This document shows positions 10,701 to 47,592 of a stretch of 52,802 bases of DNA, piece after piece (the first letter of the stretch is position 1; every line of letters starts with the position of its first letter). The translations under genes were made by a program, and so were the position numbers. The notes under the pieces were generated by a model, which was given only the letters and a program-made list of their open reading frames with translations, searched no databases and was not told where the DNA came from. Origin of the DNA: a virus (Duplodnaviria; Caudoviricetes); IMG/VR virus record IMGVR_UViG_3300011114_000970, positions 1-52,802 of that record. The stretch is one strand, 5' to 3'.

Positions 10701-11751
10701 AACCTCTCTTTCTATCGGAATTGCTACACAAGGTGCAGACGATGGGACAAATCAAGGCGATAAAGACGGGTATAAGTTTGGAAAAGGAACTCAGCCTGGA
10801 ACTGGTGGGGGTTTATATGGCGATGAAGGGAATCCTGGGTTAGATAAAGTTGATATGGCTTCTTTAGAAGATCCTTTTGATGAGCCCATTGAAGAACCCA
10901 TTGAAGAACCAATTGAAGAACCAATTGAAGAACCAATTGACGAGCCTCCTCCTGAAGATCCTGAAGATCCTGAAGACCCTGAAGATCCAACAAAGACTAC
11001 TACTCCGCCAACTAAAACACCTGTTAAGCCGCCATTACCTGTTATCAAGAAACCTGTAATTCAAGCTGAAAGCCAAATACCAGGATATAGCTGGAACGAA
11101 ACTATTACAGGCGCTTTACCTCACAGTTTACAAGCAACATTTTTAGCTGGTGCGCCAGTGACCGAAGGAAGAAATATGCCATCTCAACTTAGACAACTCT
11201 ACCCACAGCTTGCCAATATTGACCCTCGACTATTGCAAATTCTCAGTGGGAAATCAACTCCCTCCAATTTAGGTGGCGATTATGGCAGCACTGACCTGAG
11301 TGCAACAGCGCAAGGTGGTAGACCTTCTGCAGGATACCCAGCTCAAGCTGCAGCGGAATCCTCTGCTGCAAAATTTGCATCGCCTAATCTTCCAGCGAGT
11401 TATAATTCGCTTTATGCAGCGGGTCTTTCTTCTTTAGGTGGCGCTTCTAATCCTTATGGCCTAAAAGAAGGAGGCACACCTCATAGACCTGAGTTTATAA
11501 CAGGCAAAACAGGTCATTTTGTAGAAGGACGTGGAGATGGTCAATCGGACGATATACCTGCTATGTTAGCTGACGGAGAATATGTATTTGACGCAGATAC
11601 TGTTGCTTCCTTAGGGAATGGTTCTTCTAAGGCAGGCGCTGCAGCGTTGGACAAGATGCGTGAGAGCATACGTCAACATAAGCGTTCAGCGCCACACAAT
11701 AAAATTCCTCCCAAGGCTAAATCGCCTTTAGAATATATGAAAGGTCGATAA
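7741..11751 (+). CDS. Large ejection/internal virion protein with two DUF4214-like repeats
   Basis: 1336 aa; two LYxxxLGRGVDPSG...SQEY repeats; Gly/Ala hydrophobic segment; C-terminal GDGQSDDIPAMLADGEYVFDADTV domain. Confidence 0.7.
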   Translation: MGWVDSGDSATWVDDPAPESSVTVEAAPPDQGGGDIFTGVPQIYDVDRVQNIPPDQGGGVDINALYQQYLGRGVDPSGAATYSGWSPQDIASDLMKSQEYASSHGALPTNTPQDVNSIYQSLLGRGVDPSGAATYAGWEPSNIWNNILQSQEYTSTHNNPMLSMAGVYPRGALPSIDYTTTYNYAPDWLSPQDYAASGFDNQGRSVASIVPTANLNAPEGGPRLNEYGRLDQYNGQEGTATQGYQVAQGGRWHETVDMEGNPKITWVPSTFDLSGGKQVSDDPSKQGSPTFQGGTRMPDGTIVHYDAMTDSVTVEAPLSSYSTKADDQRLGYREQRYTGASNFGDTTKFQGQDVSTSKGEFLVDKETGRLFVDKNNDPIPVYRKPRDPGFDDWLTENGWMTIPMLAAIALSAGSATPLVAGEVGAAGAAGAGIAEGGVAASTAASTTFAAETAAAANAAAAAANPLSPSTLLPYSTTGSQLTTGSSLIPTTVAPWYSTTIPALDAVLAGAAKGAVIGAGTSYLTKGDPVKGAVYGALSGGVGAGGADLAANYISPSAWVTGAAGGAAAAAANAAVRGGDNILRNTAIGAITGATLPVVTDLAISVIGSDNPLAVDIFSRGILSAGRALATGGDPLQALTYSSVATVLGSNFNPSTGTITDAFGKVVSDNNITNSPQYAQLSSDLGGNNAANAWIDTQLTSITQDQNSLTTAMDNSSVLNNVANNTSAFTQADNKPNIFDIVLPSISPAGLEFPSPEDLSGMFAKTADQMAAGDTLYSKINPDSYVIKNEDGSLTAVGPSGEKMAVSQDQANDLVKAMNDANNSITTDDWTDKTKSQAQGALFSGDAKPMQVPNNWQGWTGDQPSASVLSDNYEGMMQNVQQDVTQKFIDDYKDKPTLGLETVKSSPEDIQRINEEIQNEQRQDASNLNQAGQMSQPTENEEALAISNNPLVLANATPEQEERINELKDIITSPNTTPEQKDQAAKELTSLSIGIATQGADDGTNQGDKDGYKFGKGTQPGTGGGLYGDEGNPGLDKVDMASLEDPFDEPIEEPIEEPIEEPIEEPIDEPPPEDPEDPEDPEDPTKTTTPPTKTPVKPPLPVIKKPVIQAESQIPGYSWNETITGALPHSLQATFLAGAPVTEGRNMPSQLRQLYPQLANIDPRLLQILSGKSTPSNLGGDYGSTDLSATAQGGRPSAGYPAQAAAESSAAKFASPNLPASYNSLYAAGLSSLGGASNPYGLKEGGTPHRPEFITGKTGHFVEGRGDGQSDDIPAMLADGEYVFDADTVASLGNGSSKAGAAALDKMRESIRQHKRSAPHNKIPPKAKSPLEYMKGR
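10879..10989 (+). repeat. Coding tandem repeats (12-bp CCMATTGAAGAA and 9-bp CCTGAAGAY units)
   Basis: Encodes DEPIEEPIEEPIEEPIEEPIDEPPPEDPEDPEDPEDP. Confidence 0.9.
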
Positions 11752-11753
11752 TC

Positions 11754-12758
11754 ATGGCACTGTCTCAAGGTTCACCATTACCAAATATAACAACTACTCA
11801 GCAGCAGCAGACACAAGCTCCGAGTTGGTACACTGATTATTTAAATAATTTAGCGCAAACAGGTACACAAGCAGGTGCAGGTGCGCAATATGTTGGCGCT
11901 ACAGGTTTGCAAAATCAAGCGTTTAATCAAACGCAACAGAATGTTGGCAATTATCAACCAAGCCTAACAGCTGCGACTAACTTAGCGAATACTGCTGGCA
12001 ACACGAACGTAGCAAGCTCAGTTAATCAGTTTATGAACCCCTACACGCAAAATGTCGTTGATGCTTTGGGTGTTACAGGTCGTCGGAATATTGATCAGTA
12101 TTTAGCTCCTGGGGCGACTTCAGCTGCTGTTGGTTCTGGACAATTTGGTTCAAAGCGTGGAGCTGAAGTGCTTGGCCAAGCGATGAATACAGGTTTACAG
12201 AATTTAAATTTAGCACAATCCCAAGCGCTTCAAACTGGCTATGGGCAATCACTACAAGCAGCGCAGAACCAAGTCTCAAATCAATTAGCAGCGAGTGGTC
12301 AGCTTGGCTCTTTAGCAGGGCAACAGCAACAGTATGGATTGGGCGATGTTAATGCACTTTCAACACTGGGCGCTCAACAGCAACAAATTAGTCAAAATGA
12401 ATCTTTATTCCCCTTACAAACTGCAGCTCAACAAGCAGCGATATTGAGAGGCTATACAATCCCGACTTCTGTGGCTTCTAGTTATACAGGTCCAATTCCT
12501 GGTGCGTACAGCGCTTCTCCTTTACAGCAAATTGCAGGTTTAGGTTCACTGCTAGGTGCATTGAATCAATCTCCTGCTGGAGGTGGAAAAACACCTTCTG
12601 AAAATTTCGCCAGCTTGGTCGGAACAGGATATGACAAAATTAAAAATATATTTTCGAACCCATCTCAAGAAAATGACTACGTACCTATTGACCTTTCAAC
12701 AGGTGCTGAAGGAAATACTTCACTGCCTCCTTGGTGGTGGAATGACTCTTATGATTAA
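11754..12758 (+). CDS. Ejection (pilot-type) protein
   Basis: Q/A/G-rich; FMNPYTQNVV, GQFGSKRG, SPLQQIAGLG motifs. Confidence 0.7.
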   Translation: MALSQGSPLPNITTTQQQQTQAPSWYTDYLNNLAQTGTQAGAGAQYVGATGLQNQAFNQTQQNVGNYQPSLTAATNLANTAGNTNVASSVNQFMNPYTQNVVDALGVTGRRNIDQYLAPGATSAAVGSGQFGSKRGAEVLGQAMNTGLQNLNLAQSQALQTGYGQSLQAAQNQVSNQLAASGQLGSLAGQQQQYGLGDVNALSTLGAQQQQISQNESLFPLQTAAQQAAILRGYTIPTSVASSYTGPIPGAYSASPLQQIAGLGSLLGALNQSPAGGGKTPSENFASLVGTGYDKIKNIFSNPSQENDYVPIDLSTGAEGNTSLPPWWWNDSYD

Positions 12759-12767
12759 GGAATAGTT

Positions 12768-15553: not shown

Positions 15554-15569
15554 CTTCACAGCAGTTCCT

Positions 15570-15728
15570 TCAATTTACTCCCACTTCGGTGGGAGCTTTT
15601 TTTGAAGTCATCAGTGCAATGGTCCAAGCTTCTAACCAAATGCTGTAAGGGTCTTTCAAAAGATCTTCATTCCCCGTGTGTTTTAGCAACTCGATCCAAT
15701 CATCATATTCTTGTTTTGGGTCAATCAT
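15570..15728 (-). CDS. Small hypothetical protein (52 aa)
   Basis: MIDPKQEYDDWIELLKHTGNEDLLKDPYSIWLEAW..., start overlaps the polymerase stop; below track cutoff. Confidence 0.55.
   Translation of the reverse strand: MIDPKQEYDDWIELLKHTGNEDLLKDPYSIWLEAWTIALMTSKKAPTEVGVN
15578..15603 (+). terminator. Intrinsic terminator of the late operon
   Basis: CTCCCAC-TTCG-GTGGGAG followed by CTTTTTTT, where the two arms converge. Confidence 0.9.
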
Positions 15729-18447
15729 TTCCAATTACCTTCCATTTTTCAATTTGCATCATTCTTATTCCGTTCCCACCCATTTTCCCTCTTGCGAGGA
15801 TTATAGCGCCAATCGGGACAGATTCTAATATTTCTTTGCCCATTCTTTCGTAATCTTTTCTACGGATTGTAAGAATTGCAAGACCTGTATCGTCTTTTAC
15901 CGTGATGTTAAGCCAATAACGAAATTTACGATCAAAATCAGTTATGACTCCTCCACGTTTCATAACATTACCTGTTTCAAGAGCGTCTCGTAAATTCTTT
16001 TCAGTCATAATTCCAATAACGACTCGTTCAGACGAGTCGGCTTCTAAATCATTACACTTAGTTAACTCCCAGCCTTCTTTGAGACCGTGCTTGCGAGGGT
16101 TTGCATACCAATCTCCAAAGCGAGCTGTGAAAGGATACGGATCTGGCCATTTCAGTTTTGGGTTTTCCATTTTGGAGGTTATACTTGGTGGCAGAACCTT
16201 TCCTGTTACCCGAGAGTCAAGCACCTTCTGCGCCATCTTGGGTCCAATCCCATGCACAGCGATCAATCCACCGTAAATTGCATCACCTTTAGCTGCCCAA
16301 CTGGCTTCAGATTTGTCTTTGTCGAATGCGACGTATTTGAAACCTTCAGCAGTGATTTCTCGAAGCAGTTTCAAAACAGCGTCATCATCAGAAGTATGAC
16401 GCAAAGCGGCTGCGCAAAATTCCAATGGATGGTGATGTTTTAACCAAGCTGTCCAAGCAGAAATAACAGAATATGCCGCTGCATGAGCTTTTACGAATGC
16501 GTATGAGCCTGCATGCATCATTGAATTCCAAACTTCTAAAGCTACTTCTTTTTTGATATCTTGCTGTTCTGCGCCTGCTAAAAATTTATCACGGAATTGG
16601 TCGAAATATTCTTTACCCAAAGACTTTGACATTGCTCTTCTTAGAGCTGTTAATTCTGGCCAGCCTAATTTCCCCATATCTCTTCCAAGGAACAAAATCT
16701 GCTCTTGGTAAACAACAACACCTTCTGTTTGCTCTGTCCATTTTTTATGAATCTCATGATAATAGCTCGGGATCTCTTTGCCGTTACGTACTTCGAGGAA
16801 TTTCTTAGCGCCGCCAGATTGTAATGGTCCAGGACGAGCCAATGAAGTTAAGGCAACGATATCGTTGAAATTCTTGACTTCAAATTGCCTGAGCAATTGC
16901 CTAGCTGCGTCTCCTTCAATTTGAAAAACTCCTGTAATCTTTTGACTGTTCAGCAGCGAATAAACTTCTGGTGCGTGGATGTCGATATCTGTTATCTTTT
17001 TGCCGACTTTGTCTAAGGTCTCTTGCACAATGTCCAGTGTTTTTAGACCCAATGCATCCAGCTTCATCAAATTCAAAGACTCAGCTTGATATTTGTCTAT
17101 CTGTCCAATGCCTTCTGCAGTGACGGAACAGTAGTCTGCTACAGGCGTATTGCAGATGATAACACCAGCAGCGTGTACGCCAGCGTGCGAAGCATGCCCT
17201 TCTAGTGCGCCTGAATTACGGAATCCAGGATGTTTTTCTAATAATTCACGTCCCGCCTTCAATGCTTCCATTGTATCAGTCAAACAAAATGCAGCTCGAG
17301 AATCTCCCGAAGATCGCTCAATCATATTGTCACGAATTTCTGCAGTCTCCCAAACAGGAATTTTCATACGCTTTCCGACTGTTGCCAAGATTGACCTAGG
17401 CTTTAAACGATTCACATTTCCTAGCCTTGCAATACTTTCTGCTCCGTATTTCCCTTTTAGATATTCAAACAATTCGTCTCGGCGATCTCCAGGAAAATCC
17501 ATGTCAATGTCAGGCAAATCGATTCTGGTTATATCTACGAATCGTTCAAACAGCAATCCGTATTCAATCGGGTCAAGTTCAGTTATCCCGAGCAAATAAC
17601 ATATGATTGACCCTGAAGATGAACCTCGTCCAGGACCAACGAGCATACGTTCACGAGCCCAACGAATTAAATCATAAACCATTAAGAAATAAGATTCAAA
17701 CTTCTTTTCTCTGATTACGCCTAATTCACGTTGCAATCGAGCTTCGTATTCCTCACCGAAACCCTTTGGAAAACGCCAGCTGATCCCTTTCCTTGCTTCT
17801 GCTTCTAGATCGCCTTCTACGACCATATTTTCAGCTACAGGAAGCTTTATTGGCTCGAATCGCTCTGCAATTTCTTCCCAAGAGACAGAAAGTGGGTGAA
17901 TTTCATTTATTTCCCGCTGCGACCACCAATGCTGCGAGTGTGCACCCAACCGCACTCCGAGCAATTCTGCATACTTGCGGTCTGTCGGAGCAGGATATCG
18001 CACATCGGAAACAAAGAAAAGTGGTAATTTCTTTTTATATGCCCACGCTTTATTAATCTCATTTTTCAATGGATTTAAAGGCGATAAATCGATTACCATA
18101 TCTGCAGCTTGAATTCTGCTTATATCAGCTGTGTGGGGGAATACCAAAAGATTATCAGAAAATTCAGTATCATAACTAATTCCCGCACTGTGGCGATATA
18201 ATTCTCTAACCCCCTCTTGGTTCTTTGCTAACACTTTGCAGGATCGTTCTTCATCTTTTATTAATAACTCTGCACCGAGGATGGGTTGCAATCCTGCCTT
18301 TTCTGCAGCTTTGAAAAAAGGCACATGCCCCCAAGTTCCTGTGTCACAAATGGCTGGTTGTGTATAGCCTAAATCTATGGCTCGTTTTATGACTTTGTCA
18401 ATTGGACCAAAACAATTACCGAATGAAAATTCTGACCTAGTGAGCAT
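15721..18447 (-). CDS. dnaE: DNA polymerase III alpha subunit-like (family C) polymerase
   Basis: GPGRGSSSGS, LLFERF, PDIDMDF, HAAGVII, KLDALGL, RPGPL, VYQEQ, YAFVKAHAAAY; start may be 18447 or 18468. Confidence 0.95.
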   Translation of the reverse strand: MLTRSEFSFGNCFGPIDKVIKRAIDLGYTQPAICDTGTWGHVPFFKAAEKAGLQPILGAELLIKDEERSCKVLAKNQEGVRELYRHSAGISYDTEFSDNLLVFPHTADISRIQAADMVIDLSPLNPLKNEINKAWAYKKKLPLFFVSDVRYPAPTDRKYAELLGVRLGAHSQHWWSQREINEIHPLSVSWEEIAERFEPIKLPVAENMVVEGDLEAEARKGISWRFPKGFGEEYEARLQRELGVIREKKFESYFLMVYDLIRWARERMLVGPGRGSSSGSIICYLLGITELDPIEYGLLFERFVDITRIDLPDIDMDFPGDRRDELFEYLKGKYGAESIARLGNVNRLKPRSILATVGKRMKIPVWETAEIRDNMIERSSGDSRAAFCLTDTMEALKAGRELLEKHPGFRNSGALEGHASHAGVHAAGVIICNTPVADYCSVTAEGIGQIDKYQAESLNLMKLDALGLKTLDIVQETLDKVGKKITDIDIHAPEVYSLLNSQKITGVFQIEGDAARQLLRQFEVKNFNDIVALTSLARPGPLQSGGAKKFLEVRNGKEIPSYYHEIHKKWTEQTEGVVVYQEQILFLGRDMGKLGWPELTALRRAMSKSLGKEYFDQFRDKFLAGAEQQDIKKEVALEVWNSMMHAGSYAFVKAHAAAYSVISAWTAWLKHHHPLEFCAAALRHTSDDDAVLKLLREITAEGFKYVAFDKDKSEASWAAKGDAIYGGLIAVHGIGPKMAQKVLDSRVTGKVLPPSITSKMENPKLKWPDPYPFTARFGDWYANPRKHGLKEGWELTKCNDLEADSSERVVIGIMTEKNLRDALETGNVMKRGGVITDFDRKFRYWLNITVKDDTGLAILTIRRKDYERMGKEILESVPIGAIILARGKMGGNGIRMMQIEKWKVIGND

Positions 18448-18964
18448 CGAGCGCCTTATAGCATTCAAACAGAGCTTTTACGTCGTCCAATGCCCTGTGA
18501 GTCTGAGCGAGTGGTTTTCCCTGAGTGTGTTCATAAAGTTCTGTTAATTTCATGCGCCTACCTTTTATGTGCATCGTTGAATCGACGGTACATATCTGAT
18601 TCGGAGGGAAAGGGAATCTCCTCTCCCATCCGCAGCGGAGTAATTCAAAATAGAGTACATCTCTATCGAATGCTAAATTATGCGCTATTAAAGTGTTTGC
18701 ACCTAAAAAGAATTCAGCTAACTCAGGAATTATTTCTTCTATATGACGTTTACCTTTTAACTGCTCTGGCTTTATACCTGTAATTTTTGTTATTTCCGCA
18801 GAAATTTCTTGCTTTGGATCGATCAGCTCACTCAGCTCTGCAACAACATTCATTGACTCCGTTACCTTTATAGCACCGATTTCAATAATTTTTGGTTGCA
18901 GCTCTAAGTCAGAAGAGCTGGGCAGTGTTAAGCCTGTTGTTTCAAAGTCAAGGAGAATTATCAT
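18437..18964 (-). CDS. DnaQ-like DEDDh 3'-5' exonuclease
   Basis: DFETTG (Exo I), HNLAFD (Exo II), HRALDD (Exo III). Confidence 0.92.
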   Translation of the reverse strand: MIILLDFETTGLTLPSSSDLELQPKIIEIGAIKVTESMNVVAELSELIDPKQEISAEITKITGIKPEQLKGKRHIEEIIPELAEFFLGANTLIAHNLAFDRDVLYFELLRCGWERRFPFPPNQICTVDSTMHIKGRRMKLTELYEHTQGKPLAQTHRALDDVKALFECYKALDAH

Positions 18965-22185: not shown

Positions 22186-22194
22186 GATAATTCC

Positions 22195-22395: not shown

Positions 22396-22419
22396 TGTAC
22401 ACTCCATAAAAACATCAAA

Positions 22420-22452
22420 GAAAATAGGATGGCAGTTAAAATAACCGCCACC
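22420..22452 (-). terminator. Putative intrinsic terminator inside the early arm
   Basis: Minus strand GGTGGCGGTT-ATTTT-AACTGCCATCC followed by TATTTTCTTT. Confidence 0.55.
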
Positions 22453-32023: not shown

Positions 32024-32443
32024 ATGGAGACATCAACAGTTGTAACAGCACCTAAACGCAGGGGCGGGAGGGTGAAAGGTGGGACAGCAGTCAAGCGAGA
32101 CATGCGTGAGCGCTTACTCGGACGACTCGACATGATGACTGTGACACCTTTGGAGGTGATGTATTTGACCATGAAAGATTTTTGGGACAAGGACGAAAAG
32201 ATTGCAGCTTGCGCAATTGCTCGAGACTTAGCGCCTTACATTCATCCAAAGCTAACAGCGATTCAACAACAGATTATAACAGATGACTCGAAAAAAGTGG
32301 CGGATGAGCGCTCCTTTGATAAAATTTTGAATGCATTGGAGCTTGGTGTAGAAATGCGCAAAGATTTGGCGGCTGGTCGAACTTCCAAGGTTATTGCTGA
32401 GCAAACAACAATAATTGAAACAATCGATGACGCTCCTGATTAA
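32024..32443 (+). CDS. terS: Terminase small subunit
   Basis: RGGRVKG, TPLEVM, ARDLAPYIHPKL; directly upstream of terL. Confidence 0.8.
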   Translation: METSTVVTAPKRRGGRVKGGTAVKRDMRERLLGRLDMMTVTPLEVMYLTMKDFWDKDEKIAACAIARDLAPYIHPKLTAIQQQIITDDSKKVADERSFDKILNALELGVEMRKDLAAGRTSKVIAEQTTIIETIDDAPD

Positions 32444-37983: not shown

Positions 37984-40529
37984 TGCCAGAAATGCCAATT
38001 CCGCAGGACTATAATCGTTTTATCGAAGGTGAAGAAAACGAAAGTGAACTCGAAGGCGAAGAGTCTGTTTTTGAATTGTTCGACAACGATGACGAAGTCG
38101 AAGAACTCCCTGATGGTTCAGCTATTGTACGTATGGACGAAGGTAAAGGTCCAGACGAGTCTCCTGATTTTTATGCAAACCTAGCCGACGAACTCGACAG
38201 CTGGGACTTAGACAAGGTCGCATTGAAGTATCTTGACCTCATCGAAAAAGATAAAGAAGCAAGAGAAGAACGAGACAAGCAATATGAAGAAGGTCTTCGA
38301 CGCACAGGTCTTGGCCATGACGCTCCTGGTGGGGCGCAGTTCATGGGTGCTTCCAAGGTGGTGCATCCTGTCATGGCGGAAGCTTGTGTGGACTTTGCAG
38401 CTCGGGCGATCAAAGAATTGTTCCCCGCTGACGGACCAGTAAAAACCAAGATAATCGGCGAAGTGACAGAAGAAAAAGTCAGCAAAGCGGAACGTAAACG
38501 CGACTACATGAACTGGCAGCTCACAGAGCAGATTGAAGAATATCGCGATGAAGAAGAGCAAATGTTAACTCAGTTGCCGCTCGGTGGATCGCAATATATG
38601 AAGATGTGGTACGACGATTATAAAAAGCGCCCATGCGCTGAGTTCGTGCCTATCGACAATGTTTATTTACCCTTTGCAGCAGCTAATTTTTACACTGCTG
38701 AGCGAGTCACAGAAGTCCAAGATATAACCCAAGAGCAATACGATATCCGTGTCAGCTCCGAGCTTTATATAGATTTAGAAGTTTACCGTAGCTCAGAAGA
38801 GCCAAACCAAACAAAAGCTGAAAAAGCCAACGACAAAATCGAAGGTAAAAAAGAGAATAGCTCGAATGTCGACGGCATCCGTCGAGTGTTCCATATATTC
38901 ACATGGCTCGAATTGGAAGACGATAAACTTTCTAAAGGCGAGCGAGCACCTTACATCTTGATGATTGACCAAAATGAACGAGCAGTGGTTGGTTTATACA
39001 GGAATTGGGAAGATGGCGATGACACCTATACAAAGCTGGATTGGCTCATTGAATTCAAGTTCATTCCTTGGCGTGGGGCTTATGCTATCGGTCTTCCTCA
39101 TCTCATTGGTGGTCTTTCTGCTGCTCTTACTGGTGCATTGCGTGCTCTATTGGATTCTGCTCATATTAATACAGCCCCCACGATGCTCAAGCTTAAAGGA
39201 GCAAAGATCAGTGGACAAAGCGTCACGATTGAACCCACCCAAATAACAGAAATTGAGGGTGCTCCTGGTGTTGACGACGTACGGAAAATTGCAATGCCCT
39301 TGCCGTTCAATCAGCCTTCGCCTGTGCTTATGGAGCTACTTGGCTGGCTAACTAACGCAGCTAAGGGGGTTGTTACCACTAGCGAAGAGAAGATCGCAGA
39401 CATAACAAGCAACGCACCCGTCGGCACGACGCAAGCATTAATTGAACAAGGCGCTGCAGTCTTTAGTTCAATTCACAGTCGTTTGCACGACTCTCAACGC
39501 AGGGTTTTCCGTATTCTCACAAGGCTCAATCGGTGGTACCTTGACGAACAACGTAAGGCTGAAGCGGTAGAAGATCTACCCATTTCTCAGGATGATTTCA
39601 GATCCAATGCGGATGTGATTCCTGTTTCTGACCCGCATATTTTTGCAGAATCTCAACGCTATGCGCAAATTCAGACTTTAGCTGCGAGGGCTCAAGCTAA
39701 CCCAGACCTTTATAACCGACTTGCTGTTGAAAAACGGATTCTCAAACAAATCAAGTTACCCGATATAAACGAGGTATTGCCTGACCCACAAGACGTAAAA
39801 GAGATGAATCCTGCATTGGAAAATGTAGCGATGACTTTAGGAAAACCCGTCGGTGCATTCCCTATGCAAGACCATTTAGCGCATCTGTTGTCCCATACGC
39901 AATATGCTGCTAATCCTGTGTTTGGATCTAACCCGATTTTGGCGCCTACCTTTACGCCAGCTTGTTTAGAGCATATAAAGCAACACTTAACACTTTGGTA
40001 TTTGAACCAAGTCGACACCTATGCTAGTGTTTCTTTGGGTAGACCTTTTAATGTTCTTAAAGTTGAACCCATCATGCGGGAAGCTCAAAAGCTCGTCGCT
40101 GCCGCAGACCAACACACGCAATTGGACGCTCAACAGCAACTCGGTCAGATGGTTATGCCTGTTATTCAGCAGATGTTGCAAACACTGCAACAAATGAAGG
40201 GTTCTCAGCAAAATATGGATCCTAGTGTTCAAGCCATTGTGCAAACTCAAATGGCAGAAACTCAGCGTAAAGCTACCAAAGATCAAGCTGATGTTCAGCT
40301 CGATGCGCAAAAGCTACTCGCTGATAGCAAAAAAGCGGAAGATAGAATCATTGCCGATGAGCAGATAAAGGCAGCTGAACTAACTCATGATATCAATACG
40401 CTGACCTTAGAAAGACAATTCGAAGCGCAACAAAATGCAGCTGAAGCGCAAAGAGCAGAGCAAGAAGCAGCACGGCAACAGCAAGAACAGTTACAAACAG
40501 CCGCAGCAATGCAGCAAGTTCAACCATAG
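37983..40529 (+). CDS. Portal protein
   Basis: 848 aa; VVHPVMAEACVDF, LPLGGS, NAPVGTTQALIEQG; Gln-rich coiled-coil C-terminus. Confidence 0.9.
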   Translation: MPEMPIPQDYNRFIEGEENESELEGEESVFELFDNDDEVEELPDGSAIVRMDEGKGPDESPDFYANLADELDSWDLDKVALKYLDLIEKDKEAREERDKQYEEGLRRTGLGHDAPGGAQFMGASKVVHPVMAEACVDFAARAIKELFPADGPVKTKIIGEVTEEKVSKAERKRDYMNWQLTEQIEEYRDEEEQMLTQLPLGGSQYMKMWYDDYKKRPCAEFVPIDNVYLPFAAANFYTAERVTEVQDITQEQYDIRVSSELYIDLEVYRSSEEPNQTKAEKANDKIEGKKENSSNVDGIRRVFHIFTWLELEDDKLSKGERAPYILMIDQNERAVVGLYRNWEDGDDTYTKLDWLIEFKFIPWRGAYAIGLPHLIGGLSAALTGALRALLDSAHINTAPTMLKLKGAKISGQSVTIEPTQITEIEGAPGVDDVRKIAMPLPFNQPSPVLMELLGWLTNAAKGVVTTSEEKIADITSNAPVGTTQALIEQGAAVFSSIHSRLHDSQRRVFRILTRLNRWYLDEQRKAEAVEDLPISQDDFRSNADVIPVSDPHIFAESQRYAQIQTLAARAQANPDLYNRLAVEKRILKQIKLPDINEVLPDPQDVKEMNPALENVAMTLGKPVGAFPMQDHLAHLLSHTQYAANPVFGSNPILAPTFTPACLEHIKQHLTLWYLNQVDTYASVSLGRPFNVLKVEPIMREAQKLVAAADQHTQLDAQQQLGQMVMPVIQQMLQTLQQMKGSQQNMDPSVQAIVQTQMAETQRKATKDQADVQLDAQKLLADSKKAEDRIIADEQIKAAELTHDINTLTLERQFEAQQNAAEAQRAEQEAARQQQEQLQTAAAMQQVQP

Positions 40530-40539
40530 GAGAAATGAA

Positions 40540-40818
40540 ATGACTGAAGCAATTAATGCCCACAAAAAGATGGCAATGGGTATGACAGAAGGCAACGTAA
40601 TGAAAAAAGGTGGTGGTGTAAAGCGCTATGCTTCAGGCGGTGCTGTTTCAAATTCCGCAGCATCAAATTTACCAGCAATGGGCGACAAAAAGAATGCAGG
40701 TGTCGACTTTAACGCAGGTAAGGCAAAAATCGCTAGTTTGAAAAAAGGCGGTCGTCCAAAAGGCGTAACAATTGCTATCGTCATGCCAATGCGGAAAAGT
40801 GCAGGTCGGGGTCGCTAA
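40540..40818 (+). CDS. Small basic head-region protein with three xxxGG motifs
   Basis: AGGAG RBS; MKKGG, YASGG, LKKGG. Confidence 0.7.
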   Translation: MTEAINAHKKMAMGMTEGNVMKKGGGVKRYASGGAVSNSAASNLPAMGDKKNAGVDFNAGKAKIASLKKGGRPKGVTIAIVMPMRKSAGRGR

Positions 40819-41007
40819 TTGAACCTAATCAGCGAGCTAATTGGTCGAATCAAAGAAAAACGTCAGGAGATTTCTGACGCTATGATAAATGGAAATTGTA
40901 TCAATTTCGAAAGTTATCAGCGTTTGGTCGGTCAAAGTATTGGGTTGCAAGAAGCTTTGCAAATTGTAGAATTACTAATTGAGGAGCAAAACAAGAATGT
41001 CGAATGA
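40819..41007 (+). CDS. Conserved hypothetical head-region protein
   Basis: YQRLVGQSIGL motif; TTG start. Confidence 0.65.
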   Translation: MNLISELIGRIKEKRQEISDAMINGNCINFESYQRLVGQSIGLQEALQIVELLIEEQNKNVE

Positions 41008-41419
41008 CATGGAGCAAACGCTTGCAGAAGCGTTCCCTACTTTAGATCCTTTGATGGCACCGTATGGTGCTCGAGTTCTGGTGCAATTAAGAGCTGTGAA
41101 AGAAAAAGTAACTAGTGCTGGAATTTATATTCCAGAAGAAACAAAAGAAACAGAGAAGTGGAATACCATGGTTGGAAAGGTAATTGCTATTGGACCACTC
41201 GCTTTTAAGATGCGTGAGACGATGCAACCTTGGCCAGAAGGTGCTTGGGCTAGTGTTGGAGATTTTGTCCGAGTCCCGAAGTGGGGTGGAGATCGTTGGG
41301 AAGTCGATTTTACAGATGAACAAGGGGCAAAAGGAAGCGCATTGTTTACTTTCTTCAATGACCATGAGCTAATCGGTAAAATTACAGGTGACCCTCGTGA
41401 TATCAAAGCATTCATTTAA
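40997..41419 (+). CDS. groES: GroES-like co-chaperonin
   Basis: PYGARVLV, TSAGIYIP, GKVIAIGP, VGDFV, NDHELIG. Confidence 0.85.
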   Translation: MSNDMEQTLAEAFPTLDPLMAPYGARVLVQLRAVKEKVTSAGIYIPEETKETEKWNTMVGKVIAIGPLAFKMRETMQPWPEGAWASVGDFVRVPKWGGDRWEVDFTDEQGAKGSALFTFFNDHELIGKITGDPRDIKAFI

Positions 41420-41439
41420 GTTTTGAAAGGAAAACTGTC

Positions 41440-42432
41440 ATGAATTCAACAGAAAAGATGGAAATGCAAGTGGATGAAGAGCAAGACGGCGGCGCTACAG
41501 TATTGCTGCCTGAAAATGAAGAGAATCCACAAGCTGAAAATGATGATTCTAACGAAAATTCGTCTAAAAATGACGAAAATGAGGAAGAAAAATTAGAAAC
41601 AAGTAAAAACGAAGACGTAGATGAAGATCGAGAAGCCATCCGTGCTGCTCGTCGCGAAGAACGTAGGCTTAAAAAGCAGATTCATCGTGAAAAAACATCA
41701 GAATCTAAGTATTTAATCACTGCACTCAAGAAACAAAACGAAGAATTAGCAGGTCGTTTGGCTTCTGTAGAGCGTAAAACTAGCGGTGCTGAGTTGGCTC
41801 GAGTTGATAAAGCCATTGAAGACGCTGGCGTGCAAGTTGAATACGCAAAGATGAAGATGAAAGAGTCTGTTTCTGGTAGTGACGGAGAAGGTCTAGCAAG
41901 AGCGCAGGAAATGTGGTATGAATCCAAGCGTAAGTTAGAGTCTCTCGAAGCAATCAAACAGCATGCGACACGGCAGATGACTCAGCCAAAACAGAATATT
42001 AACGTGCCAGACCCTCAAGTCCAGCGGTTAGCTTCTGATTGGATGGAGGACAATGCATGGTATGACCCGAATGGTCGTAATGAAGATTCTCAAATCGCTC
42101 AGATGGTGGATAAAAAGCTAACTGAAGAGGGATTTGACCCAACTTCTGAAGATTATTGGGACGAACTTGATACAAGATTAAAAAAGTACTTGCCGCAACA
42201 TTATAATACCAGTTATAATAATCCCAGTACCAAAAATCAAAGACCAAGGTCGGTAATGACGAGTTCAGGCAGAGAGACGATGGCAACAACCAAGTCCAAT
42301 GAGTTCAGGCTTAGCCCTGACCGTGTCAAAGCCATGAAAGAAGCAGGATTGTGGGACAATTCTGAATTACGTCAAAAAGCCATTCGCAAGTATGCCGAAT
42401 GGGATCGTTCTAATAAAAATCGAGGTCAATGA
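41440..42432 (+). CDS. Capsid scaffolding protein (putative)
   Basis: Acidic N-terminus, long coiled coil, NAWY...GFDPTSEDYWDELD..L, position before capsid. Confidence 0.7.
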   Translation: MNSTEKMEMQVDEEQDGGATVLLPENEENPQAENDDSNENSSKNDENEEEKLETSKNEDVDEDREAIRAARREERRLKKQIHREKTSESKYLITALKKQNEELAGRLASVERKTSGAELARVDKAIEDAGVQVEYAKMKMKESVSGSDGEGLARAQEMWYESKRKLESLEAIKQHATRQMTQPKQNINVPDPQVQRLASDWMEDNAWYDPNGRNEDSQIAQMVDKKLTEEGFDPTSEDYWDELDTRLKKYLPQHYNTSYNNPSTKNQRPRSVMTSSGRETMATTKSNEFRLSPDRVKAMKEAGLWDNSELRQKAIRKYAEWDRSNKNRGQ

Positions 42433-42965
42433 TGGATAATCGTTTAAAGAAAAACAACAATGCAGGTCGTGAAAATCGTGCAATAGATGACTCATCACGA
42501 GCTGCTCCTGAAGAAAAAATGGTTTCATCTGAAGAGCGTCGCAGGATGTTTCGCTCGGAGTGGATGCAAGAAGCATTGCCCACTCCCCCTCCTATTGAGG
42601 GTTTTCATTTGTGCTGGCTTTCTTCGAACAGTCAATACGATCCAATCCACAAACGTATTCGCATGGGTTATGTTCCTGTAAAAGCTGAAGAACTTCCTGG
42701 CTTTGAACACATGAAGATGAAAGCAGGCGAACACGAGGGGTTTGTTGCTTGTAATGAGATGCTGCTTTACAAGCTTCCTATGGAAATTTATCAAGAGATC
42801 ATGGCAGAAATGCACCATAATGCTCCGATGGATGAACAGGAAAAGATCAAGGTTCAGCAAGATCAGCTACTCAACGCTAAAGACAGTAATGGTAAGCGTT
42901 TGGGTCAAGTTGAAGGTGATGGGATGAATTTCGATTTATCTAAGCAAGCACCAATATTTGAATAA
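42429..42965 (+). CDS. Conserved head-region hypothetical protein
   Basis: LPTPPPIEGFHLCW...RMGYVPVKAEE. Confidence 0.7.
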   Translation: MMDNRLKKNNNAGRENRAIDDSSRAAPEEKMVSSEERRRMFRSEWMQEALPTPPPIEGFHLCWLSSNSQYDPIHKRIRMGYVPVKAEELPGFEHMKMKAGEHEGFVACNEMLLYKLPMEIYQEIMAEMHHNAPMDEQEKIKVQQDQLLNAKDSNGKRLGQVEGDGMNFDLSKQAPIFE

Positions 42966-43106
42966 AAATAATAAGCGCTAGAAATTTAGCGCTTAGAACA
43001 GTTATACTTTCAGTAAGCCTTAAAATCGCGATATGGTGATTTTGCAAATGCAGCTTTGAACAAAGCTAATATCAAAATTTTCATTAACCTTTTTAAGGAG
43101 TTAACA

Positions 43107-43673
43107 ATGTCTGCAACATCTGCTCCATTTGGCATGCGACCTTCTTTCCACCCTTCAGGGCTGGATCGTGCTGTCGTCCTTGCTGATGGAATCACGTCAG
43201 GCTATGCTTCGAACATACTAAAAGGTCAGCCAGTCGCTTTAAACACATCAGGAGTGATTATTATCGCTACTGCAGGTAGCGCCTACCAAGGTGCATTTGC
43301 AGGTGTTGAGTTTACGGATACTACTGGTCGTCGTCGTGTGTCGAATTATTGGCCAGCATCAACAACTGGTACAAGCATTACAGCGTACTACTACTCTGAC
43401 CCAAATATTGTTTATGATATTCAGGCAGATGGTTCATTAGCCCAAACATCGATTGGTGATCAAGCAAACTTTACAAACATCGCAGCTGGTTCTACGACCA
43501 CTGGTTTGTCAGCTTGCACGATTTCCACTTCTTTGGCGGGAACAAGCGCCGTCGGTGATATGCGTATCATCGGCTTATATAACGCAGTTGACAACGCATG
43601 GGGCGACGCTTACACGATAGTGCAAGTACAAGTCTCACGTAGTCAATACGTTGCAACCATTAACGCCATTTAA
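43107..43673 (+). CDS. Capsid decoration/cement protein
   Basis: MSATSAPFGMRP..., DPNIVYDIQ; immediately upstream of the capsid gene; TAAGGAG RBS. Confidence 0.7.
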   Translation: MSATSAPFGMRPSFHPSGLDRAVVLADGITSGYASNILKGQPVALNTSGVIIIATAGSAYQGAFAGVEFTDTTGRRRVSNYWPASTTGTSITAYYYSDPNIVYDIQADGSLAQTSIGDQANFTNIAAGSTTTGLSACTISTSLAGTSAVGDMRIIGLYNAVDNAWGDAYTIVQVQVSRSQYVATINAI

Positions 43674-43687
43674 GGAGGGATTGAACC

Positions 43688-44602
43688 ATGGCAGCTCCGA
43701 TGAGAAGTACGGATTTCCGTTCAATCGTTGAACCGATCCTAAATGAAGCATTTGATGGCGTATACGACCAACGTGCTGACGAGTGGAGTACAGTTTTCCG
43801 TGAGCAATCGGGTATTCCACGTAACTACCACGAAGAACCTGTGTTGTATGGTTTTGGTGCAGCCCCTCAGTTACCTGATGGCAGCCCTGTAACCTATCAA
43901 CAAGGTGGCGTGCTGTTCTTACAACGCTATGTTTACCAAGTATTTGGTTTGGCATTTGCTTTGACTAAAGTTCTAGTCGAAGACGGTGACCACATCCGTA
44001 TTGGTCAAGTATATGCGAAGCACTTAGCTCAATCTTTGGTGGAAACCAAAGAACTGTTATGCGCTAACGTATTGAATCGTGCGTTTAACTCTTCTTACAC
44101 TGGCGGTGACGGTGTTGCTTTAAACAGCGCATCACATCCGATTGTTAGCGGTACATTTAGCAATTTGTTAAATACTGCAGCTAACTTGTCACAGACCTCA
44201 CTCGAACAGATGTTGATTCAAGTGCGTCAAGCTGTTGACAACAATGGCAAGAAAATCCGTTTGCAACCAACTAAATTAGTTGTTGCTCCTGGAAATGTAT
44301 TCCAAGCAGAAGTTCTGTTGAAATCCGTACTACGTACTGGTACTGCTAACAATGACATCAACCCAATTAAATCAATTGGATTGTTGCCTGAAGGCGCATC
44401 AGTTATTAGTCGTTTGACTTCAGCTACTAACTGGTGGGTCGAAACTGACGCTCCAGAAGGTATGAAACTGCTCATGCGTCGTGCTTTAGAAAAGACCATG
44501 GAAGGTGACTTCGAAACTGATAGTATGCGTTACAAAGCTACCGAGCGTTATCAGGTAGGTTGGACTGATCCTCGTGCTATGTTTGGTACGCCAGGAGTTT
44601 AA
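43688..44602 (+). CDS. Major capsid protein
   Basis: GFGAAP, ANVLNRAF, GGDGVAL...HP, LVVAP, EGDFETDSMRYKATERY..GWTDPR; strong RBS and terminator. Confidence 0.92.
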   Translation: MAAPMRSTDFRSIVEPILNEAFDGVYDQRADEWSTVFREQSGIPRNYHEEPVLYGFGAAPQLPDGSPVTYQQGGVLFLQRYVYQVFGLAFALTKVLVEDGDHIRIGQVYAKHLAQSLVETKELLCANVLNRAFNSSYTGGDGVALNSASHPIVSGTFSNLLNTAANLSQTSLEQMLIQVRQAVDNNGKKIRLQPTKLVVAPGNVFQAEVLLKSVLRTGTANNDINPIKSIGLLPEGASVISRLTSATNWWVETDAPEGMKLLMRRALEKTMEGDFETDSMRYKATERYQVGWTDPRAMFGTPGV

Positions 44603-44610
44603 TGTTGTGC

Positions 44611-44642
44611 AAGAGGTCGAGTCAAAAGCTCGATCTCTTTTT
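44611..44642 (+). terminator. Intrinsic terminator after the capsid gene
   Basis: AAGAGGTCGAG-TCAAAAG-CTCGATCTCTT followed by T tract. Confidence 0.85.
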
Positions 44643-44678
44643 AATTAACTATGTCTAAGCTTTTCAAGGAGAAAGACA

Positions 44679-45644: not shown

Positions 45645-45654
45645 GGAGAAGACC

Positions 45655-46440
45655 ATGGGACAATTTAAACCAATGCCTAAAATGGAAACAACTGAGCCAT
45701 CTGTTGAGCTAAAACTCAAAAAAGGTGGCAAAGTAAAAATGCAAATGGGCGGTGTTGCGCCTATGATGGAAGCTCCTGCTCGTCGCGGAATGCCTATGGC
45801 GATGCCTACTCGTCGTGGTATGGCTATGCCTGATCGTCGTGGCGCACCTATGCTTGATCGTCGTAATGTACCTCCCGCTGCTTTACTCCGTAAAAAGGGT
45901 GGAGAAGTAGAAACAAAAGACGAGATGCGTGATGAAAAAGACGAGATCAAACGTGTTGAAAAAGAGCTCAAACGTCACGAGGGAATGAAAGCTAGTAAAG
46001 GTCATAAAGGTCTTAAATCTGGCGGTCGTGCTATGTCTCCCAAAGCAGGTCCAGACATGGTTGGTGGATTAGCTGGTGGATTAAATGCCACCCGTGCGAA
46101 TTCAAAAATGACTACAGGCGCTGTTCGCAATAGCAATGCTGGTGGATACAAAAATGGCGGTGCTGCTAAGTTCTTAGCAAATATGTCTAATGGTGCAAAT
46201 CCTAAACAATTGTCTAAATCAACAGGCGCTGTTAAGAATGGTAAGCCAGCAGGCTATAAAGATGGTGGAGCTGCTAAATTTATCTCCAATATTTCTTGTG
46301 GCGAAAACCCTAAACAACTCCCTAAATCAACAGGAGATGTTAAGAACGGCAAACCAGCTGGTTATAAAGATGGTGGTTTTTCAGGTATGTCTACCAGTTC
46401 TTATGGTCATAAGGCTGGCGGAAAAATGATTAAGTGCTAA
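45655..46440 (+). CDS. Basic low-complexity protein with eight xxxGG motifs and a 36-aa tandem duplication
   Basis: LKKGG, MQMGG, RKKGG, LKSGG, YKNGG, YKDGG x2, HKAGG; TAAGGAG RBS. Confidence 0.75.
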   Translation: MGQFKPMPKMETTEPSVELKLKKGGKVKMQMGGVAPMMEAPARRGMPMAMPTRRGMAMPDRRGAPMLDRRNVPPAALLRKKGGEVETKDEMRDEKDEIKRVEKELKRHEGMKASKGHKGLKSGGRAMSPKAGPDMVGGLAGGLNATRANSKMTTGAVRNSNAGGYKNGGAAKFLANMSNGANPKQLSKSTGAVKNGKPAGYKDGGAAKFISNISCGENPKQLPKSTGDVKNGKPAGYKDGGFSGMSTSSYGHKAGGKMIKC

Positions 46441-46443
46441 ATT

Positions 46444-46470
46444 GGATAGGAGCTTCGGCTCCTGTCTTTT
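46444..46470 (+). terminator. Intrinsic terminator
   Basis: GGATAGGAGC-TTCG-GCTCCTGTCT followed by TTT. Confidence 0.88.
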
Positions 46471-46484
46471 AATTGGAGAATTAA

Positions 46485-46904
46485 ATGACTATTACAGCTA
46501 CATCACAAACACTGTTTGATGGCGAGCGAATTGCTATTATGAAGTTTTATGCATCAATGAGTACTACAGAAAATGAAAGTGCCGTTGCAAAGGTAACACC
46601 TTCAGCTTTAACAGCTTCTAGTGCTGGTGGCGCTTGTGATGCTGTAAGTATTCTTAAGGTAACTTCATTGACACATGGTTTAGAAGTGCAAATGAATTGG
46701 AATGCAACTACAAATGTTGTTATTCAAACAATTCCTCAAAATACACAATACACGCAAGATTTTTCTGGGTTTGGTGGTTTGACCAACAATGCAGGTGCAG
46801 GGAAAACTGGAGTTGTCTCTTTTACTACTTTGGACGGAAGCGCTGGGGATTCTTACACAGTGATTCTAGAAATGCAAAAGCATTATGTTAATCCTCTAGG
46901 CTGA
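46485..46904 (+). CDS. Virion structural protein (putative)
   Basis: ESAVAKV, DFSGFGGL.NNAGAGKTG...YTVILE. Confidence 0.65.
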   Translation: MTITATSQTLFDGERIAIMKFYASMSTTENESAVAKVTPSALTASSAGGACDAVSILKVTSLTHGLEVQMNWNATTNVVIQTIPQNTQYTQDFSGFGGLTNNAGAGKTGVVSFTTLDGSAGDSYTVILEMQKHYVNPLG

Positions 46905-46908
46905 TTTC

Positions 46909-47592
46909 ATGCCTAGCAAATCCAAAGCTCAGCACAATCTTATGGAAGCGGTGGCTCACAACCCTGCTTTTGCTAAGAAAGTTGGCATTCCCACAAAGGT
47001 CGGAAAAGATTTTGCACGGGCAGATAAAAGAATGAATGCGGGTGGAATAGTTAAATCTTTGAAACAGTCTGGTTTTTATGATTCAGGTAAAACTAAACCA
47101 GAAAGAGAAAAGATTGTTAGCAAAGTAACAACAAAACCCCAACGAATAGCAATGGTTGAGAAGTTATTTTCAGATAAAAAAATGGCTTCTGGTGGACTGT
47201 ATGCCAACATTCATGCAAAGCAAGAACGCATTAAGGCTGGTTCTGGTGAAAGAATGCGTAAGGTTGGTTCTGAGGGTGCGCCGACTAAAAAAGCGTTTAT
47301 CGAATCAGCTAAGACTGTCAAAGTAAAAGATGGTGGCGTACAATTATCAGTAGGACGTGGAGAAAAACTACCCACAAGTCAAGGCGCAGGATTAACTGCA
47401 AAGGGTAGAGCAAAAGCGAACAGAGCGACGGGAAGTCATTTACAAGCGCCAGCTCCTCATCCTAAAACCGCAAAGGAAGAAGGTCGTAAAAAGTCATTCT
47501 GCGCAAGAATGAGCGGTGTTGTTAACAATGCCAAAGGAGATGCACCGAGAGCTAAAGCTTCTTTAAAACGATGGAATTGTTCAGGGTGGTGA
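46909..47592 (+). CDS. Composite basic protein ending in a DUF6321-like domain
   Basis: MPSKSKAQHNLM module / GLYANIHAK..RIKAGSGE module / GLTAKGR...RKKSFCARM...SLKRWNC module. Confidence 0.7.
   Translation: MPSKSKAQHNLMEAVAHNPAFAKKVGIPTKVGKDFARADKRMNAGGIVKSLKQSGFYDSGKTKPEREKIVSKVTTKPQRIAMVEKLFSDKKMASGGLYANIHAKQERIKAGSGERMRKVGSEGAPTKKAFIESAKTVKVKDGGVQLSVGRGEKLPTSQGAGLTAKGRAKANRATGSHLQAPAPHPKTAKEEGRKKSFCARMSGVVNNAKGDAPRAKASLKRWNCSGW

Follow-up and report, generated by a model that had tools for sequence, protein, structure and literature searches.

Encapsulin cargo-loading peptides are short, mostly C-terminal and rich in Gly and small hydrophobic residues; they are found on unrelated enzymes and dock on the inner face of the HK97-fold shell. 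In phage T4, the capsid targeting sequence (IPI–III, Alt) is a short portable peptide that sends unrelated proteins into the prohead, and these are later injected. Located at the N-terminus, the T4 peptide attaches to the scaffolding core, and the prohead protease cuts it off at L/I-x-E. The Gly-Gly dipeptide is a frequent P2–P1 pair for viral and bacteriocin proteases. In adenain and C39 sites, which occur in basic core proteins, Gly-Gly is preceded by a hydrophobic residue lying four positions before the cut ((M/I/L)-x-G-G in the case of adenain). C39 leaders are N-terminal, comprise 15–30 aa ending in GG and are associated with a C39 peptidase/ABC exporter.

Giant multi-domain effectors encoded beside terminase and portal genes have been predicted to be packaged and injected; fusions with MuF or the portal were taken to account for packaging, and zincin-like peptidases for processing (Iyer et al. 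2017, PMC5512222). A terminal GG/helix tag is not described in the main text of that paper, in which the word 'glycine' occurs 0 times (PMC5512222). The locus compared here belongs to an uncultured tailed phage (Caudoviricetes; IMG/VR record IMGVR_UViG_3300011114_000970), and "the window" denotes the whole 52,802-nt stretch that was analysed. The initial annotation had pointed out a recurrent hydrophobic-[K/A]-x-G-G motif in five proteins of the virion region, listing nine single sites and eight further copies in 45655–46440. All nine sites lie in frame (positions are given below with each protein) and the eight copies also read as stated. HATGG and MNAGG depart from the pattern as it was worded there.

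The strict pattern [LIVMFYW][KA]xGG, defined after the fact, was scanned in the 62 predicted proteins of the window (16,879 aa). It was observed 18 times versus 5.1±2.3 in 300 within-protein shuffles, none of which reached 18 (maximum 13). With x-[VIA] added, 9 matches were observed versus 1.1±1.1, while the bare GG dipeptide was not enriched (125 versus 114.8±9.3, a count reached by 39 of the 300 shuffles). Fifteen of the 18 strict matches fall in the five named proteins, at 4.55 per 1000 aa; the remaining late proteins (31) reach 0.24 and the early ones (26) 0.19. By gene class, 17 matches fall in the 11,577 aa of late genes and 1 in the 5,302 aa of early genes. Three of the four strict matches in the protein encoded at 7741–11751 (VAQGG, IAEGG and LATGG) look like chance occurrences, as do two in the tail fibre (49623–51971) and one in 15721–18468 on the minus strand.

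Judging from its distribution, the same peptide also recurs in many relatives of this phage. In 80 related independent viral contigs, motif density per 1000 aa is 30.4 in the 92-aa family, 26.2 in the 261-aa family and 6.0 in the 227-aa family, compared with 0.03 in the portal and 0 in both the capsid protein and the 205-aa family, whose gene (43056–43673) lies just upstream of the capsid gene. In the alignments of the 261-aa and 92-aa families, the motif columns are the best conserved, set among spacers of variable length and sequence; conservation is higher at motif positions than elsewhere (p 4e-7 and p 0.0024, respectively). Conservation reaches 0.87 for motif Gly and 0.54 for other Gly, and hundreds of orthologues show no change in the motif columns. 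Gly codons vary from site to site in the window, which agrees with the earlier view that conservation is at the protein level. When carrier families were compared by hhalign, the motif alone aligned, except that the 92-aa and 261-aa families aligned over two motifs (52% probability); the description of the carriers as unrelated thus holds at the profile level, apart from this pair. The enrichment is, on present counts, specific to this phage lineage. In three phages that have their portal, capsid protein and GroES-like genes in common with the window phage, it is absent (Roseobacter phage CRP-901, 3 observed and 5.2 expected), marginal (Caulobacter phage RW, 4 observed versus 3.1 expected) or weak (HTVC023P, 12 observed versus 6.7 expected).

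It is highly improbable that the motif merely reflects chance or the composition of Lys-/Gly-rich low-complexity proteins. Three carriers do contain 14–15% Lys and 11–16% Gly, tandem duplication within 45655–46440 inflates the counts, and the pattern was set with the matches in hand. However, this reading is contradicted by the composition-preserving shuffles, by the family specificity in the 80 contigs and by column conservation, which singles out the motif Gly from the others; moreover, the motif recurs in acidic giant proteins at fixed terminal positions. From its enrichment and conservation, the hydrophobic-[K/A]-x-G-G peptide is a real protein-level signal, under selection and common to several otherwise unrelated head-region proteins.

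A cargo-like carrier is the giant 1383-aa protein (33832–37983, plus strand). Its gene lies between those of the large terminase (32415–33842) and the portal protein (37983–40529, plus strand; phrog_1216 portal, E 2e-16; 59% identical to the MW202545 head-to-tail connector) and overlaps both; this slot is the same in related loci, and such a packaging and head gene context is that of polyvalent proteins. The 1383-aa protein itself matched no Pfam, PHROG or NCBIfam family. A resemblance to PcfJ around its H-C-I-G stretch was noted by eye only. The C-terminal two-part tag (37882–37980, plus strand) comprises HATGG at 37882, FKSGG at 37909 and a terminal helix with D-A-M-R-Y-E-L, and is matched by the tag profile A6 at E 2e-17. 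In general, the tag is about 25–35 aa long and consists of a GG motif, often doubled, 2–16 residues, an amphipathic helix [D/E]-x-M-[R/K/Q]-x-[E/A]-L and then basic residues. Across 20 tags, GG is invariant and the helix Met at least 90% conserved. The giant protein carries a second copy of the helix half near its N-terminus (33862–33909, plus strand; E 0.016 against profile positions 39–54), and the arrangement of an N-terminal helix copy with a C-terminal tag is found in 44 of 120 tagged proteins.

The terminal position of the tag recurs in wider searches. The motif occurs in the last 45 aa of 19 of 32 distinct pre-portal ORFs, versus 12% expected from body density, and two consecutive pre-portal genes of one related locus (L052) each have their own C-terminal motif. 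In MW202545, Caulobacter phage RW and HTVC023P, the motif is found 2–7 residues from the C-terminus. Among the 120 best tag matches, the unit lies at most 8 aa from the end in 118; internal units are present in 11 of these proteins, with some examples carrying 3–4 units. A position-blind search of 1.84 billion proteins returned 361 clusters at E≤1e-3. Among its best 150 matches, the best-scoring segment ends within 12 aa of the C-terminus in 115, 32 are internal and 133 proteins carry two or more copies, figures obtained with a profile built from tags hand-picked as canonical and from matches of which many are mutually related or fragments. Within 175 tagged proteins, 70% of pairs have no body similarity, and linking at ≥50% coverage gives 7 clusters. 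Homologues of the giant protein and other tagged proteins contain ART-PolyVal (E 1e-23), PcfJ, DUF3990, DUF6973 and GH108 (lysozyme) domains; by domain content, these tag carriers are "polyvalent" effector proteins, in agreement with the class for which packaging and injection were predicted (Iyer et al. 2017, PMC5512222).

Two small basic proteins carry the motif in arrays. The 92-aa protein (40540–40818, plus strand; pI 11.0), encoded just after the portal gene, has MKKGG at 40600, YASGG at 40627 and LKKGG at 40738. A Pfam search at E≤10 gave no family for it. All 30 orthologues keep the second and third GG unchanged, and 80 motifs were counted in 27 proteins of this family. The 261-aa protein (45655–46440, plus strand; pI 10.3) contains, under a loose reading of the pattern, eight copies starting at aa 21, 29, 79, 120, 165, 201, 237 and 252 (nt 45715, 45739, 45889, 46012, 46147, 46255, 46363 and 46408). 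Its family has 3657 matches, and its motif columns are invariant or nearly so; against Pfam repeats, only a sub-threshold SEP match was obtained and the KGG stress-protein repeat was not matched. An AlphaFold2 model (78 aligned sequences) gave pLDDT 50.9, pTM 0.18 and a single helix at residues 88–110. The protein is predicted to be disordered, which would make its copies short linear motifs, and the family combines conserved islands of 5–7 residues, predicted disorder and variable spacers, as in short-linear-motif arrays. Judged from alignment alone, the 92-aa family likewise has conserved motif islands with variable spacers.

The remaining two carriers place the motif beside folded modules. 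In the 227-aa modular basic protein (46909–47592, plus strand), PHROG and Pfam define modules at residues 1–42, 92–140 and 159–222. MASGG at 47182 immediately precedes the G-L-Y-A-N-I-H module and VKDGG at 47323 the DUF6321 module, while MNAGG at 47032 lies inside an insertion unique to the window copy among 26 aligned sequences. The N-terminal module is swapped or absent in the orthologue alignment, with GG at both junctions conserved at 0.88–1.0. Residues 1–42 and 1–51 are matched by two PHROG families annotated as 'virion structural protein', an annotation that is the sole hint placing any of the five proteins in virions. In the 1336-aa protein (7741–11751), LKEGG opens a conserved C-terminal domain of ~95 aa (11461–11748, plus strand). 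Members of this family range from 411 to 1865 aa and have a common C-terminus, in most copies prefaced by hydrophobic-[AK]-x-GG. The C-terminal core matches the tape measure protein 8zdo_S twice (E 1.5e-7), as well as tape-measure PHROGs, and the protein is likely an internal or ejection protein with a tape-measure-like module. Together with the terminal tags, the 227-aa junctions bear out the initial annotation as to a location at module boundaries and near C-termini. Since the motif abuts conserved folded modules in the 227-aa and 1336-aa families, it may be just a part of the domain there.

The position ahead of folded modules in these two families would also suit a structural or self-associating element with no targeting role, an alternative that we consider somewhat unlikely. 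The motif could fold as a beta-hairpin turn and, combined with the helix after it, give a mini-domain that connects modules or lets units pair, or it could be a lysine-flanked contact for packaged DNA. The unit recurs N-terminally, internally and C-terminally in the same proteins, and the N- and C-terminal helix cores are slightly more alike within one protein than between proteins (4.44 versus 4.01 of 7; 26 of 5000 permutations match; row relatedness not controlled). The pI of the three small carriers (10.3–11.0) also favours a structural role, whereas the two giants are acidic (4.3 and 5.1). Moreover, the 261-aa model, despite its 78 aligned sequences, has no confident hairpins or domains around the motifs. 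The strictly conserved aromatic/Met and Val/Ile residues are not needed for a plain DNA contact or a flexible linker, and the strong bias to the extreme C-terminus is left unexplained by a structural role.

The initial annotation had proposed a signal for maturation cleavage or capsid loading. For the former, the cut would fall after Gly-Gly and be made by a protease of the phage or the host, while the head matures or once the proteins have been injected; it would release the modules of polyvalent or modular proteins and remove terminal targeting peptides. Units between the modules of multi-unit proteins point in this direction, as do the 227-aa motifs at junctions of modules that are found separately elsewhere; the internal best matches and multi-copy proteins are compatible with a linker or processing site as well. 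For some polyvalent proteins, processing by peptidases has been proposed (Iyer et al. 2017, PMC5512222). However, no peptidase family was detected in the 36 window proteins scanned with Pfam and/or PHROGs, neither a C5, CE-clan or C39 protease nor, as already remarked in the initial annotation, a recognisable prohead protease, and a Pfam scan of 6 tagged proteins likewise gave none. No PDB fold matched the conserved 178-aa head protein at E≤0.001. The major capsid protein (43688–44602, plus strand; Pfam Phage_capsid_4, an HK97-type family) has no propeptide, as the family alignment begins at its residue 6. In the strict sites of the window, and equally in relatives, K or A lies two residues before GG and the hydrophobic residue three before, so that the latter would be at P5, not at P4 as in the adenain/C39 consensus. 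Cutting at motifs 2–7 residues from the C-terminus would free trivial peptides only, and in the 227-aa family, copies starting at the module retain K-x-G ahead of it. Cleavage after Gly-Gly is, on balance, quite unlikely and has no direct support, whereas the loading half of the proposal fits the C-terminal tag beside the portal gene, the arrays in a protein predicted to be disordered and the copies close to the C-terminus. Should the motif mark cleavage instead, a protease that has so far escaped recognition would be expected in a very common group of environmental phages.

Overall, the motif resembles a docking label of proteins enclosed in the particle more than a cutting site, and the best reading, with a probability of roughly 0.45, is a modular docking signal for virion-internal proteins. 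The lineage-specific enrichment, the contact with folded modules in two families and the internal tag matches weigh against it. Hydrophobic-[K/A]-x-G-G, usually followed by x-[V/I], would be a short linear docking peptide that earmarks proteins for the virion interior, to be placed close to the portal or along the inner face of the capsid. Three formats would be in use. Giant 'polyvalent' effectors whose genes lie between those of terminase and portal carry it as the first half of the ~25–35-aa terminal tag, and in a long, internal, tape-measure-like protein it opens the conserved C-terminal domain. Small, very basic head-module proteins bear 3–10 copies separated by flexible spacers, an array that would allow multivalent binding to a repeated surface. 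The portal and major capsid proteins are candidate receptors by context, and no motif was found in 70 capsid-protein orthologues. A location in the virion, the binding of the motif by a protein and the resulting packaging are what we infer from these data.

For short-tailed phages, the way in which proteins are selected for enclosure and injection has been worked out in just a few models. A simple tag on hundreds of protein clusters, including giant effectors, would make that selection testable by fusion and mutation. It would help to predict which unannotated phage genes encode injected proteins and could provide a means of packing foreign proteins into phage particles. It is possible, if still tentative, that in an abundant clade of uncultured podophages the GG hairpin-like motif and the D-x-M-R-x-E-L helix form a portable address of ~30 residues at protein termini, the arrays using the GG half by itself, and that effector cargo of any kind, along with small basic proteins, enters the head by this address. 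Recombination could then bring in new anti-host weapons with no need to evolve their packaging afresh, and the tag would amount to a transferable signal of natural origin for 'load into phage and inject'.

Among the known systems, the C39 double-glycine leader was rejected, as the motifs here are C-terminal or internal and no C39 or ABC family was recognised in the scanned proteins. An adenain-type site was likewise discarded, the hydrophobic residue lying five positions before the putative cut in the window and in relatives, with no viral cysteine protease recognised among the 36 window proteins scanned. The tag also differs from a T4-type capsid targeting sequence in being C-terminal (115/150 and 118/120 matches), and no prohead protease was found. 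The likeness to mycobacteriophage Douge gp16 (PDB 8zdo), where each of the two matches to the C-terminal core of 7741–11751 starts at G-G followed by hydrophobic residues, is limited to this one of the five proteins. The polyvalent/MuF/SPP1 gp7-type systems are approached through the signature domains ART-PolyVal and PcfJ of the tagged proteins, with no MuF domain found in the window proteins or tagged proteins scanned with Pfam. Compared with encapsulin cargo peptides, the tag has another consensus, a second, helical half and additional N-terminal and internal copies, and the shell concerned is a DNA-filled head rather than a nanocompartment. However, both are short terminal peptides on unrelated protein bodies, and the capsid protein here is of the HK97-type Phage_capsid_4 family.

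The hydrophobic-[K/A]-x-G-G motif described in the initial annotation was confirmed on translation at every site listed, with glycine codons varying between sites, although two of the examples given (HATGG and MNAGG) fall outside the pattern as it had been stated. The strict form, [LIVMFYW][KA]xGG, occurs 18 times in the 62 predicted proteins, against 5.1±2.3 in within-protein shuffles, none of the 300 being as high as 18; GG as a bare dipeptide shows no enrichment in the same comparison. Fifteen of the 18 belong to the five proteins originally named, the density being about 0.2 per 1000 aa both in early genes and in late genes once the five are set aside. The strict matches in the body of the protein encoded at 7741-11751 (three), in the tail fibre (two) and in 15721-18468 on the minus strand (one) are probably due to chance.

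The window is a linear IMG/VR virus record with a CheckV completeness of 94%. In its late region the small terminase (32012) and large terminase (32415) are followed by the 1383-aa protein (33832-37983), the portal (37983-40529), the 92-aa protein (40540-40818) and a 62-aa protein. A GroES-like gene (40979-41419) and genes for 330-aa, 178-aa (42429-42965) and 205-aa proteins separate these from the major capsid protein (43688-44602), after which come a 321-aa protein, the 261-aa repeat protein (45655-46440), a 139-aa protein and the 227-aa modular protein (46909-47592). The GroES-like gene is kept inside the head module across the whole phage group, including phages RW, CRP-901 and HTVC023P. 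An adaptor-like protein, a homing endonuclease and a tail fibre follow, in that order, 3´ of the 227-aa gene. The homing-endonuclease-like gene (49022-49621; phrog_314, E 3e-18) has a homologue in only two of 84 related loci and so looks like a recent mobile insertion. The opposite end of the record holds an endolysin, a SU10-type adaptor, tail proteins and the fifth carrier, of 1336 aa (7741-11751). The adaptor domain (PF24175, 3796-4428, E 6e-22) suggests a tail construction like that of coliphage SU10. The window portal is 59% identical to that of MW202545, an uncultured phage from Manatee Spring, 48% to that of Caulobacter phage RW, and 30-34% to those of Roseobacter phage CRP-901 and pelagiphages HTVC023P and HTVC027P.

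The distribution of the motif was analysed in 80 viral contigs, whose ORFs were assigned to window genes; as retrieval used the capsid protein, the choice of contigs was independent of any motif carrier. Per 1000 aa, counted in loci L005-L084, density reaches 30.4 in the 92-aa family (80 motifs in 27 proteins), 26.2 in the 261-aa family (502 in 64 proteins) and 6.0 in the 227-aa family, with 1.7 in the G-rich tail fibre, 0.03 in the portal and none in the capsid protein or the 205-aa protein. Motif positions are more conserved than other positions in the 261-aa family (p 4e-7) and the 92-aa family (p 0.0024), these p-values overstating independence because the contigs are related to one another. 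In the 227-aa family motif positions are not better conserved than the rest, which is a well conserved domain. Counts in individual genomes indicate that the enrichment is lineage-specific: it is present in MW202545 (12 observed, 4.1 expected), weak in HTVC023P (12 and 6.7) and not significant in RW (4 and 3.1) or CRP-901 (3 and 5.2). RW, the nearest cultured relative, keeps motif copies only at the end of a 580-aa protein, and in HTVC023P copies lie at protein ends and ahead of its DUF6321 domain.

By profile comparison the carrier families have nothing but the motif in common, except for the 92-aa and 261-aa families, between which a distant kinship is possible. This restricted likeness implies that the motif either spread by modular exchange or originated more than once. 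A literature search found no description of the GG motif, and supplementary alignments may yet show the GG/helix unit; NCBIfam returned nothing meaningful for the five proteins.

The small carriers differ in how the motif is arranged. The 261-aa family yields 3657 matches at E<=1e-3; in its alignments most invariant columns belong to the motif K and GG, while spacers differ in length and sequence. The AlphaFold2 model of the window protein (78-sequence alignment; pLDDT 50.9, pTM 0.18) has a sole helix, at residues 88-110, and the protein is predicted to be a disordered basic chain with conserved motif islands. In the ESM Atlas it matched only unnamed viral clusters, with scores of at most 0.89. 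In the 92-aa protein a spacer separates a motif doublet from the last motif, and GG is invariant in motifs two and three. The 227-aa protein strings several modules together. Its N-terminal module is swapped or absent in relatives, and motifs stand before a G-L-Y-A-N-I-H module and before the DUF6321 module; some relatives carry an extra C-terminal insert, again with [KAS]-[DE]-G-G. No mention of DUF6321 was found in the literature search. The N-terminal 42 residues of the 227-aa protein (46909-47034) correspond to phrog_16759, a region that also heads 845-aa and 263-aa PHROG families labelled 'virion structural protein' and a 206-aa protein with two GG motifs in a related contig (L083, 13327-13947). 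These 42 residues may represent another portable module of head proteins.

Members of the 1336-aa family range from 411 to 1865 aa and share only a C-terminal domain of about 100 aa, preceded in most copies by hydrophobic-[AK]-x-GG. The core of this domain gives two matches to the mycobacteriophage Douge tape measure protein. The C-terminal module is duplicated in tandem in some relatives (L149, L152, L161 and L164). The window protein also carries two DUF4214-like repeats towards its N-terminus, an extended hydrophobic middle rich in Ala and Gly, and an acidic repeat, P-I-E-E-P.

Relatives differ widely in the gene that separates terminase from portal. Among 21 ORFs with at least two motifs and no BLAST match to the window, 19 lie upstream of the portal gene, 18 of these being at least 350 aa long. 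Of the 32 distinct ORFs ahead of the portal, 19 carry hydrophobic-x-x-GG in the final 45 residues, where the density in their bodies predicts 12%; at one locus (L052) two consecutive pre-portal genes each have their own C-terminal motif. The terminal tag is built from the motif, often doubled, followed after 2-16 residues by a helix, [D/E]-x-M-[R/K/Q]-x-[E/A]-L, and a basic end. A profile of 20 tags selected by the analyst matched 300 longer proteins in a 5.8-billion set, many database matches being fragments. In the best 120 matches the unit lies at most eight residues from the C-terminus in 118, with internal units too in 11. When 1.84 billion representatives were searched with an HMM blind to position, 361 clusters scored E<=1e-3; in the best 150 the top match was within 12 residues of the C-terminus in 115, N-terminal in three and internal in 32, and 133 had at least two tag matches. 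BLAST of a canonical 55-aa tag against cultured phage genomes and plasmids gave nothing below E 3, a weak test at that length.

The bodies of tagged proteins are mosaic. The idea that all are unrelated proved wrong, since single-linkage clustering joins 174 of 175 through shared modules; pairwise and coverage-based figures are the fairer measure, and by these similarity goes undetected in 70% of body pairs, and seven clusters, two of them large, remain when links require 50% coverage. The domains found in tagged proteins (ART-PolyVal, PcfJ, DUF3990, DUF6973 and GH108) identify these carriers as 'polyvalent proteins', as the term is used by Iyer et al. 2017 (PMC5512222). In the window's 1383-aa protein Pfam detects no PcfJ-like region; its central part (35880-35920) contains H-C-I-G and then a run of Gly, resembling by eye the PcfJ-like region found by Pfam in a tagged relative (P0211).

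The favoured reading, drawn from sequence, is that the GG motif would serve as a docking signal for virion-internal proteins. It is preferred because the tag is fixed at the terminus of differing cargo bodies encoded beside the portal gene, motif arrays sit in a protein predicted to be disordered, and a hydrophobic pair is conserved around GG. The unit might instead be a structural or self-pairing element, which is a live rival. The helix half is repeated within the first 70 residues in about 44 of the 120 best tagged proteins, and the 1383-aa protein has the heptad D-A-M-R-Y-E-L near both termini (33862-33909 and 37930-37980). Such bookend heptads are slightly more alike within a protein than across proteins (4.44 against 4.01 of seven positions).

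Cleavage at GG, one of the two readings first proposed, is a possible alternative: units occur between modules also, and Iyer et al. 2017 (PMC5512222) propose that polyvalent proteins are processed in some systems. However, some copies are too near the C-terminus for cutting to matter, which favours docking. The earlier remark that no prohead protease is recognisable still holds, no protease family being found in the 36 window proteins scanned, and the alignment of the capsid protein with its family starts at residue 6, leaving no room for a propeptide. Conservation is strong in the 178-aa head protein (42429-42965), flagged initially: column identity averages 67%, and His, Ser, Asp and Glu occupy invariant columns. 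The protein was rejected as a hidden protease for want of a recognisable fold or PDB relative: its AlphaFold2 model (pLDDT 71) had no Foldseek match in the PDB at E<=0.001, and its profile found nothing below E 0.39 among PDB sequences and no family was assigned. The 330-aa and 205-aa head proteins, used as profiles, likewise drew nothing convincing from the PDB.

As regards a receptor for the docking signal, complex prediction with the portal (25-row alignment) and the 55-aa tag (20-row alignment) scored 0.00, which is no verdict and counts neither way. Tag identity co-varies with that of its neighbours (Spearman: portal 0.37, 330-aa 0.33, 178-aa 0.33, 261-aa 0.31, capsid protein 0.17) and singles out no partner, as the correlations are confounded by linkage. 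Mimicry of the GroES mobile loop was considered, on the ground of a resemblance, and dropped; the loop of the phage's own GroES-like protein has a single Gly.

Three small virion proteins of phage T7 (V01146, L165) offer a comparison, as a lead only; the spacing of the hydrophobic residue is unlike that of the window motif. In gp6.7, gp7.3 and gp13, Gly-Gly falls among the final 20 residues: gp6.7 ends in F-G-G-K-K, gp13 in K-G-G, and gp7.3 carries two copies.
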